A DNA stretch of 28,794 nucleotides from positions 1 to 28,794 of IMG/VR virus record IMGVR_UViG_3300038675_000789. One strand, given 5' to 3'. The position numbers were made by a program, and so were the translations under genes. Under the pieces are notes generated by a model. The model did no database searches, was not told where the DNA came from, and saw nothing but the letters and a program-made list of their open reading frames with translations. This document shows, in pieces, positions 3,873-23,153 of the stretch (positions are counted from its first letter, which is position 1; every line of letters starts with the position of its first letter). Origin of the DNA: a virus. Its lineage: Duplodnaviria > Caudoviricetes.

Positions 3873-3875
3873 AAA

Positions 3876-3948
3876 AGCCACTTAGGAGACTCGAACTCCT
3901 GAACAATCGGTTACAGGCCGATGGCAATGGCCGCTATGCGAAAGTGGC
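3876..3948 (-). tRNA. tRNA-Thr(UGU)-like, 73 nt, non-canonical C33, no encoded CCA
   Basis: GCCACTT TC GCAT AGCGGCCA TTGC C ATCGG CCTGTAA CCGAT TGTTC AGGAG TTCGAGT CTCCT AAGTGGC T. Acceptor (7 bp), anticodon (5 bp) and T (5 bp) stems are perfect, and a T-run follows. Confidence 0.85.
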
Positions 3949-3957
3949 TGGTCGGTG

Positions 3958-20721: not shown

Positions 20722-21159
20722 ATGACCCTCTCTGAGCTTCTGGAGGGGCTGAAGCAGATCGATCCCGAAGAGTGGGAAATTATCATGCACGGCATTCCCC
20801 TAATACCGATGAGCCAATATTTTACATTTGATCATGGGGAAACAACAGCGCACCGATATCATAGTACGTATCTACCGTTTTCACAGATGGAAAGAGACGT
20901 TGCCCTGGTATGGCTTCAAGGCTGCCTCCAGCGTGCATGCGAAATGCGGGAATGGGACTTGCGGCAAGACCAGTGGGTCATCAAAATGGATGGCCAGAAT
21001 GTTGTCTACCACTATGCCACAATCGAGAAGGGCATAGCAGAAACCGGCGAGCCTTTTGAACACGAAGGCAGGGGCAAATCTCAGGCCGAGGCCCTGCTGG
21101 CGGCCTATATGGCGGCGGTAAAGGGGGAGAAGCTGTCAACCGTTCTGGCCCAAAAATGA
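20722..21159 (+). CDS. Hypothetical viral protein
   Basis: 145 aa, ATGA-coupled to the integrase; C-terminal SQAEALLAAYMAA helix. Confidence 0.7.
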   Translation: MTLSELLEGLKQIDPEEWEIIMHGIPLIPMSQYFTFDHGETTAHRYHSTYLPFSQMERDVALVWLQGCLQRACEMREWDLRQDQWVIKMDGQNVVYHYATIEKGIAETGEPFEHEGRGKSQAEALLAAYMAAVKGEKLSTVLAQK

Positions 21160-21401
21160 CCCTGATCGACGACTATATAGTGGACTGCCAGCTCAGGGGC
21201 ATCCGCTACCCCAAGACAGCTATCTACTACATCCAAGACTTCGCCACCACCTGCGAAGACCTGCAGAACGCGAACCGTGCAGACCTGAAGCGATACCTGG
21301 CGGTCCTTCGGGGCCGGAACCTCAAGCAATCCAGCATCATGAAGGCCTACAATCACCTGTCAGGCTTCTATGAATACCTGGTGGATGAGGAGCTGATCAC
21401 A

Positions 21402-21670
21402 GTAAGCTACCCCTCCCCTGAAGGAGAGGGGCTTTCAGCAGCCCTGAGCAGATCTGTTTCAGAATCAGAGATCTGCCCGGACCTCCAGGCCAGCCTACAT
21501 GCATCGACGATCTGCAGAGGTCCCAGTCTTGCTGGAACGTTGGCCTCAGATCTGCCAAAGACGGCTTCAAATCGTGTTTCGACCGCACCCTTTCGGGCAA
21601 GAGTCTGGCAGAGCCGTACAGGATCAGCATCGAACGGTTTACCGCTAGGGTGCCTATGATGCCCAAGTAC
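21402..21670 (-). ncRNA. Putative structured RNA (omegaRNA/reRNA-like) inside the IS605-like element
   Basis: Four successive stem domains plus the right-end hairpin; G.U pairs and a GAAA tetraloop form only on the minus strand; TATA-like ATATTTAA at 21701-21694. Confidence 0.55.
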
Positions 21671-21788
21671 ATGCAGGAGATTGATTTGACATGTTAAATA
21701 TGTATGCAGAGCACCGCGAAAGTAAACTGGGAAGTGTACCCAATTCCTCCCACCCCCTAAAGGAGGTGGGCCTCCTTGGTGCTTTACT
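21402..21788 (-). mobile_element. Non-autonomous IS200/IS605-family element (387 bp, no tnpA/tnpB)
   Basis: Subterminal hairpins CCCACCTCC-TTTA-GGGGGTGGG (left end) and AAAG-CCCCTCTCC-TTCA-GGGGAGGGG-TAGCTTAC (right end). Inserted 3' of TTCAC on the minus strand, with no target duplication or TIRs. Confidence 0.85.
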
Positions 21789-22573
21789 GTGAACCCGGTC
21801 ACATCCTTCAGGAAGAGGTATCTCCAGACCTACAAAGAGCAGATAGCTCAGGATGTGCGGCAGCTGGTCAGCATCGAGGACGCCAGCAGGCTGGTCAACT
21901 CAACTCTGGATAGTCGCGACAAGGCGATACTCATCCTCCTCTTCAAGACGGGCATGCGGGCCAATGAGCTTCTAGCACTAGACGTAGGCGATGTAGACAT
22001 TCTAAAAATGGAGATCAGGCTCAAGCCCACAACGAAGCGCAGCAATAGGCTGCTGTTCTTCGACGAGGAGGCCGCCGCAGTCCTGGGGGCCTGGCTCCGG
22101 GCAAGACCGCTCAGGAGCACCCACGGAGGCGATGCCCTGTTCCCGAGCAAGACCACCGCCAGGATATCAGTCCGCAATCTTGAGAGGTTGGTGTCGAAAC
22201 ATGCAGAGCGCGTGGGCCTGCACGACCCTGCATCGCCTCTGCTGGAAAAAAGATTCTCTCCACACAATGCGAGGCACTGGTTCAGTACCTGGCTATATCG
22301 CGCTGGGATGGAGGAGAGGTATATAGCCTGGCTGAGGGGGGATGCTCCACGAGGGGCTATGGGGCCCTATATCCACATTGCCCCCGAGGACGTCAGGAAG
22401 AGCTACCTAGCCCATGTGCCCAGGCTTGGGGTGTAGTTCGCGCGGCTTTGCATGTAAAGTCGGTTCTGCAAATAAAGTCGAGCGCCTGCAAATTAAGTGA
22501 CGGATTATATCAATTGATTGATTATATCATTTGATACCATATTTGATTAAGCTTTGTACAAAATAGACGAAAA

Positions 22574-23023: not shown

Positions 23024-23153
23024 ATGACAGAATCCCGCGAAGGTAACCAAATTTATCCCAAATTACTGATATTAGTACACCTTGCAATTAAAGTCTGATG
23101 TCTGCAAAGGAAGTCCCTCGTTTTAGGGACTTTACATGCAAAGCCATATGTAC

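Follow-up and report, generated by a model that had tools for sequence, protein, structure and literature searches.

A mobile, protein-free IS200/IS605-type element of Methanothrix and its viruses carries a structured RNA with a predicted TnpB omegaRNA layout

The integrase gene of a Methanothrix virus is interrupted by a mobile element that has no protein gene and whose minus strand carries a fold of about 270 nt that is under selection. The element is a PATE, that is, a non-autonomous IS200/IS605 element, and the 3′ 145 nt of its predicted RNA can be fitted, in structure only, to the omegaRNA layout of co-resident TCAC-type TnpB loci, with two hairpins added in stem 1. The reading we favour, with a probability of roughly 0.6, is that of an omegaRNA-bearing PATE that uses TnpB in trans for homing. 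The whole stretch of DNA analysed, here called the window, corresponds to a 28,794-base virus record of IMG/VR with genes for portal and terminase. Its features are collected in Table 1.

Table 1. Features of the element, its RNA and its insertion site (window coordinates)
Feature	Position	Strand	Basis
ORF-free IS200/IS605-type (IS1341-like) element, 387 bp	21402..21788	-	boundaries from homologous copies; no protein family in four frames
Target motif TTCAC, predicted TAM, 5′ of left end	21789..21793	-	sequence
Left end type A: predicted DNA guide GAGG (21774-21771) and subterminal hairpin (21770-21749)	21749..21788	-	similarity to L032; fold
Right end: predicted DNA guide AAAG, hairpin 21432-21409, terminal GCTTAC	21402..21435	-	6/10 pairs compensatory; three hairpin variants
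TATA-like box, predicted start near 21670	21693..21701	-	sequence; spacing constant in left-end types A and C
RNA 5′ domain, helix P1 with invariant loop motifs	21616..21671	-	4/6 pairs compensatory
RNA 5′ domain, three-way junction with GAAA-tetraloop hairpin	21548..21615	-	7/11 and 2/9 pairs compensatory
Predicted omegaRNA stem 1 (21546-21541 with 21492-21487), enclosing two hairpins and the pseudoknot strand	21487..21546	-	stem invariant; hairpins 4/7 and 2/4 compensatory
Predicted pseudoknot strand, partner of the terminal hexamer 21407-21402	21493..21498	-	no other strand of the RNA pairs 6/6; 97 nt from the end
Predicted stem 2 and long variable hairpin (stem 3)	21437..21486	-	of 17 pairs, 4 compensatory, 3 one-sided
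Predicted guide, flanking integrase DNA	21382..21401	-	sequence; by analogy with TnpB omegaRNA biology (PMC10278001, in part)
Integrase 5′ part, SAM-like domain	21156..21401	+	PF13495/PF02899; 82/82 residues as in intact P0145
Integrase 3′ part, catalytic domain	21789..22436	+	PF00589, E 1e-25

Results

A protein-free element within a viral integrase gene

The stretch 21402-21788 separates the SAM-like from the catalytic portion of a tyrosine integrase whose homologues show no indel at the insertion site. One of these, P0145 (297 aa), is identical to the virus integrase over the first 82 residues and across the insertion site, which shows, at the protein level, that there is an uninterrupted allele; in 9 of the 10 other members of the integrase cluster that span the site, the residues there differ. 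Homologous copies of the element diverge from one another exactly after ...GTAGCTTAC and before TCAC|. The copy boundaries and the indel-free homologues together confirm 21402-21788 as the limits of the protein-free IS605-like unit proposed in a preliminary description of this DNA. Its removal would restore the integrase site of the intact allele, and the insertion lies 3′ of a fixed tetranucleotide. The empty allele would read TTCAC|TGTGATCAGCTCC, and both this junction and the predicted guide at 21401-21382 read as had been described. DNA of the empty allele was found in none of the viral contigs, a set that may omit near-identical records.

Four other copies lie beside genes that bear the name Methanothrix soehngenii or Methanothrix sp., and the close integrases are from Methanothrix sp., which identifies the host as Methanothrix. 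The record also has a tRNA-Thr(TGT) gene at 3875-3949 on the minus strand. Just past the integrase lies a perfect 18-bp inverted repeat (22444-22461 and 23128-23145, 666 nt apart), accompanied by degenerate copies; these are possibly integrase arm sites around an attachment site. The same 18-bp motif adjoins the insertion in L006/L008.

The element has moved to many TCAC sites

Searching with an interior 17-18-mer pattern returned at least 80 metagenome and 10 viral loci, and 74 of the 90 matches listed (64/80 metagenome, 10/10 viral) proved to be copies of the element. These matches have about 37 distinct right flanks and come from Methanothrix and its viruses; sites with one flank in common may be assembly chimeras. 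The left end could be resolved at 29 sites among the matches listed, 355-393 bp from the right end, and is preceded by TCAC at 26 of them, by TTAC at two and by TGAT at one. The copies show mobility to many TCAC sites, absence of ORFs and left ends in common with tnpB elements.

Subterminal hairpins of the IS200/IS605 type are present at both ends. The type A left end of the window is 82% identical over 50 nt (E 9e-7) to that of L032, a tnpB element of virus G001, and by inspection types B and C resemble L036/L037 and L033, respectively; each of the three left ends therefore has its like in a TCAC-flanked tnpB-coding element. A single RNA cassette is found behind all three and with three right-end hairpins, and always stops at the right end. 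The end guides presumably follow the pairing rule of IS608, GAGG or GAAG fitting TCAC and AAAG fitting the terminal TTAC. Pairing of this kind between end guides and targets is described in excerpts of PMC10055086. No tnpB lies between the element ends in any of the copies examined, all 13 viral elements with this right-end type are family members, and homology searches found no tnpB-bearing parent with this RNA or right end. A Y1 TnpA fragment occurs in one of 28 virus records.

Among the 29 resolved sites of the matches listed, the integrase copy is the only one that clearly breaks a long ORF. It matches contigs of other samples with zero differences across long stretches, which suggests a recent hop. 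At six of the 29 sites (L058, L085, L102, L104, L113 and L123) the insertion point is exactly a TGA stop codon on the opposite strand. There the element end supplies an in-frame TAA, so that the host protein would stay unchanged; these flanks are possibly chimeric, and four of the six ORFs exceed 180 codons.

Several copies are incomplete or rearranged. Those without a left end (L053, L063 and L135; L076 and L108) start within 2 nt of one point, corresponding to about 21682 of the window; one of them starts directly after the stop of a portal gene, and L063 has an additional hairpin of ~30 nt within a loop. Truncated versions of 85-130 nt were seen in L010/L021 and L011/L017. In L071 (1940-2145), a second small ORF-free IS605-like element in the opposite orientation sits at a TGAT-type site inside the first helix of the RNA, and its end abuts the 85-nt truncated copies in L011/L017.

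Other searches delimited the family. An exact 23-mer specific to the window has no match in viral contigs, and in plasmid and phage collections only the end hairpin is matched. The single match in GTDB genome contigs (L024 / G002:C13) falls within a 3.8-kb contig assigned to a Syntrophaceae MAG without mcrA. Proteins of this contig resemble those of Methanothrix virus G001, and it is probably misbinned; the RNA family model (R1) had no match in 140 other genomes of that MAG's phylum and the copy pattern was absent from 50 genomes of its class.

The interior of the element does not code for protein

A 91-codon ORF on the minus strand was rejected as a gene: the frame is open in only 21 of 36 copies, variable columns are spread over the codon positions as 37/42/33, and its longer homologues are read-throughs of 164-211 aa and one repeat protein. 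Pfam detected no protein family in four frames of the element. Degraded tnpB was likewise rejected, as no frame scored above shuffled decoys against a TnpB C-terminal profile and there was no nucleotide match. The earlier statement that the interior is not tnpB debris therefore holds by Pfam, profile and nucleotide tests, and the alignment to degraded tnpB that would contradict it was not found. The idea that the 5′ hairpin is a copy of a hairpin in tnpB coding sequence was dropped (best E 0.12, on the opposite strand), as was a resemblance to the HEARO core seen by eye, which failed profile tests.

A fold of about 270 nt is selected on the minus strand

We aligned 36 copies (alignment A1): of 40 distinct copies, L071, which is broken by another element, and four near-duplicates were omitted, and L125 was added. 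RNAalifold recovered from this alignment the chain of minus-strand helices that had been proposed from the window alone, and covariation supports it. In the resulting structure of 78 named pairs, 98.3% of cells are paired and 29 pairs have changed on both sides. This level was reached in none of 500 shuffles, and slid controls gave 32-45% paired. The covariation cells overcount events, because many of the changes were inherited by one lineage of four sequences; others turn up in more than one lineage, such as three pair types at a single position and the replaced hairpin of L102.

The strand can be assigned as well. The single-sequence fold z is -2.31 for the minus versus -0.62 for the plus strand, and the minus strand is the better folded in 35 of 35 distinct copies. 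Alternation of Watson-Crick with G-U pairs occurs at 14 of 77 pairs (231 cells) against 8 pairs (13 cells) for Watson-Crick with A-C, in line with the claim that the G-U pairs work only on this strand. The TATA-like box noted earlier at 21701-21694 is present as a putative promoter. Left-end types A and C, which are unrelated, both have an AT-rich box ~30 nt ahead of the first helix, and from this spacing a start near 21670 and a scaffold of 270 nt are predicted. Six RNA runs contain the element and contigs cover it in all four runs examined; these contigs also span the left end or flanks, and strand and transcript ends are not readable from them.

The 5′ 125 nt (21671-21548) covary strongly and have no homologue in 51 TnpB, IsrB and HEARO loci or in Rfam. 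The suggested comparison with omegaRNA, sotRNA and HEARO models gave no Rfam match at gathering level; at E up to 10, the window and the divergent copy L102 returned only weak, chance-level matches. As a verdict on the whole molecule, the suggestion of a new RNA class was too strong: it may stand for the 5′ 125 nt, for which no homologue was found, whereas the 3′ half fits the TnpB omegaRNA layout.

A predicted TnpB omegaRNA layout in the 3′ part

Of 15 TnpB loci, mainly TCAC-flanked ones, 13 have a terminal hexamer that can pair 6/6 with a stretch lying immediately before the stem-1 3′ arm; this pseudoknot strand lies 68-96 nt from the end and covariation is present. The 6/6 partner in the window RNA (21498-21493) likewise directly precedes the 3′ arm of an invariant 6-bp stem, which is identical to stem 1 of L045. 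The pairing is kept in 36 of 36 copies with a single informative one-sided change (G-U to A-U in L136), and in the two copies that vary there, L102 and L136, nested competitor pairs are broken and the pseudoknot pairing is kept. Shuffles gave a chance level of 7.6% for such a partner at that distance range and of 44% anywhere in the RNA. The surrounding hairpins change, but the hexamer and its predicted partner either do not vary or vary in ways that keep the pairing. A second candidate, the GUAAAC loop at 21642-21637, was set aside because it pairs only 5/6.

Next in the predicted layout come stem 2, stem 3, which is variable, and the hairpin of the right end; excerpts of PMC10097598 describe this order for ISDra2. 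The right-end hairpin (21432-21409) sits 7 nt from the 3′ end, and a hairpin within 10 nt of that end is a feature of TnpB omegaRNAs according to passages of PMC10278001. The hairpin at the right end, part of the earlier fold, is confirmed; its proposed extension by GCUGC/GUAGC, which a single change from G-U to A-U, seen in 3 of the 36 copies, favours, competes with the pseudoknot and stem 2, and these fit the alignment at least as well.

A covariance model of TnpB omegaRNAs (R2) scored the window at 18.9 bits and the copies at 15-30. Most of this score comes from the right-end hairpin, since the end of an IsrB element reaches 27.5, and R2 does not reproduce the stem-1 mapping. The family model R1 and a nucleotide profile found nothing beyond the right-end hairpin in the co-resident TnpB omegaRNAs. 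An additional hairpin is likewise found inside stem 1 of L164, the 3′ end of a bacterial TnpB, which suggests that enlarged stem-1 loops occur elsewhere in cis.

Candidate TnpB partners

TnpB is encoded in 3 of the 14 virus records that carry the element. The G001 protein passes the cut-off of NF040570 (guided_TnpB) and, by inspection, has the three acidic residues of the RuvC motifs. The virus population in which the element occurs also contains TCAC-flanked TnpB elements that share its left ends. In G004, a tnpB element is inserted in a second tnpB of opposite orientation (L137:350-1800). The same virus has a 355-aa IscB-family protein of IsrB size, below the NF040563 cut-off, with an upstream RNA region (L141:1266-2562), and this region is unlike the RNA of the element.

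Discussion

Proposed mode of action and alternatives

Under our preferred reading, TnpA supplied in trans would move the element to TCAC sites, and transcription of the RNA cassette would run from the TATA-like box across the right end and on into flanking DNA, so that each copy would take its own flank as guide. The RNA would be loaded on a TCAC-recognising TnpB encoded elsewhere, for example by a sister element, and the guided TnpB would cut the empty insertion site, repair from the filled allele then retaining or spreading the element. Retention or spread by such repair was shown for Geobacillus elements (excerpts of PMC10055086). We infer the start and end of the transcript, the pseudoknot, the supply of TnpA, the TnpB partner, cleavage and homing. 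The earlier proposal of a stand-alone guide-RNA gene that borrows TnpB in trans accordingly survives as the best reading, TCAC TnpB elements co-occurring with this one, without the homing or immunity aimed at the integrase that had been attached to it. A predicted guide against the repaired integrase is what any such insertion would have, because each would target its own empty site.

An RNA derived from an omegaRNA might instead no longer guide cutting, and serve as a stable PATE transcript, as a decoy for TnpB or TnpA or as a regulator with another partner on the 5′ domain. We regard this as possible, if unlikely. It would accommodate a structurally selected 5′ domain of 125 nt without counterpart in TnpB loci, our failure to find a cognate TnpB in the searches and the persistence in viruses of copies lacking the left end, and passages of PMC4615843 report an expressed PATE RNA in Halobacterium that has a growth effect and is a proposed TnpA competitor. 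The terminal hexamer and its predicted partner, however, keep pairing while adjacent hairpins change, and the cassette always ends at the right end. A dedicated role of the integrase copy, kept to destroy integrase-restored or superinfecting sibling genomes or to silence the integrase mRNA, seems to us highly improbable. The intact allele with identical residues across the site means that the target can exist in nature, but the integrase is one of the many right flanks listed and the only resolved site that clearly breaks a long ORF, and immunity or antisense control, as put forward in the preliminary description, is therefore unsupported. The differing site residues in most of the cluster, the signs of a recent hop and the empty-allele DNA missing from the viral contigs also argue against it, and the integrase is probably an incidental landing site, one among many.

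We consider it very unlikely that the folds function while the transposing element is single-stranded DNA, or that they are palindromes of degraded tnpB under no selection. Short frames resemble TnpB C-termini by eye and truncated versions of the element exist, but these frames do not rise above shuffled decoys and have no nucleotide match, while the G-U alternations, the replacement of whole helices and the constant spacing of the TATA-like box also count against this reading. We give next to no credence to an IscB/IsrB-type (HEARO) RNA on the plus strand with a 5′ guide. Rfam does give a weak match at 21402-21498 (+) (13.8 bits versus a cut-off of 83, E 1.1-7.6), and G004 has the IsrB-sized element; this match, however, is limited to the end hairpin common to both RNAs, which HEARO, or IscB omegaRNA (RF02033), carries on the other strand, and its core is unmatched. 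In 35 of 35 copies the plus strand gives the worse fold, it turns the G-U pairs into A-C, and there is no similarity to three HEARO loci or to the G004 RNA. An IStron or self-splicing intron was rejected on the grounds that no Rfam intron matched at E up to 10 and that the RNA is antisense to the integrase.

Relation to known systems

The closest relatives are the PATEs encoding omegaRNAs that need TnpB in trans, described in excerpts of Meers et al. (PMC10055086), and the stand-alone omegaRNAs acting in trans that are summarised in passages of Altae-Tran et al. (PMC10691335). Like these, as far as those texts go, the present element has no protein gene, shares its ends with nuclease-coding elements, has an RNA bounded by the right end and would need its effector in trans. 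It differs from them in its archaeal host and viruses, in its ~270-nt RNA, to which a 5′ domain is added and whose stem 1 is enlarged, in that no nuclease-coding parent with the same RNA was found, and in that one cassette occurs behind three left ends. Length alone is not new, because processed omegaRNAs of 79-466 nt are reported in PMC10278001 (excerpts).

The omegaRNAs of the TCAC-flanked TnpB loci L032-L046 have in common with the element the TCAC motif, the left ends and the predicted order of stem 1, pseudoknot strand, stem 2, stem 3, right-end hairpin and 3′ tail. They overlap the tnpB ORF and are ~100 nt long, whereas the RNA of the element has its own predicted promoter, a GCUUAC tail and two hairpins in stem 1; sequence homology was not detected beyond the right-end hairpin. 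AmaTnpB has a TCAC TAM and a 106-nt scaffold, according to parts of PMC10278001. The ISDra2 omegaRNA, compared here by its description in parts of PMC10097598, has four stems plus a pseudoknot that joins its 3′ end to the stem-1 region, as is predicted for the element, but its TAM is TTGAT, unlike the TCAC of the element. Haloarchaeal VNG_R0052 and the sotRNAs (excerpts of PMC4615843) are likewise archaeal PATE-derived RNAs with a UUCA-type tetraloop hairpin at the right end; VNG_R0052, in contrast to the RNA of the element, is a fused left and right end, and the Rfam sotRNA and HgcC models had no match in the element. We found no description of this RNA family in literature on Methanothrix/Methanosaeta, IS605 and TnpB, and the omegaRNA supplements of PMC10278001 and PMC10691335 could hold a relative. 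What is new here is the enlarged, uncatalogued RNA architecture, a family for which no nuclease-coding parent was found, and the capture of three left ends.

Implications

More speculatively, and in our opinion doubtful, the cassette would be a nuclease-free, self-promoted guide-RNA module that has outlived tnpB, swaps ends and forms a guide library dispersed between chromosome and viruses. Its 5′ domain and enlarged stem 1 would then recruit a distinct partner (for instance a second protein, or a TnpB that is domesticated or dimeric), and it might park silently on stop codons, since the right end gives TAA where the target had TGA, with guides against the 3′ ends of genes.

The finding alone does not establish a new immunity system. 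The role of stand-alone omegaRNAs is called unknown in passages of PMC10691335, and trans-guided homing in a methanogen virus is directly testable, since there are dozens of natural guide-target pairs, a covarying model, candidate TCAC TnpBs and an intact/interrupted pair of integrases. The 5′ domain may show how a guide RNA gains independence from its mRNA.
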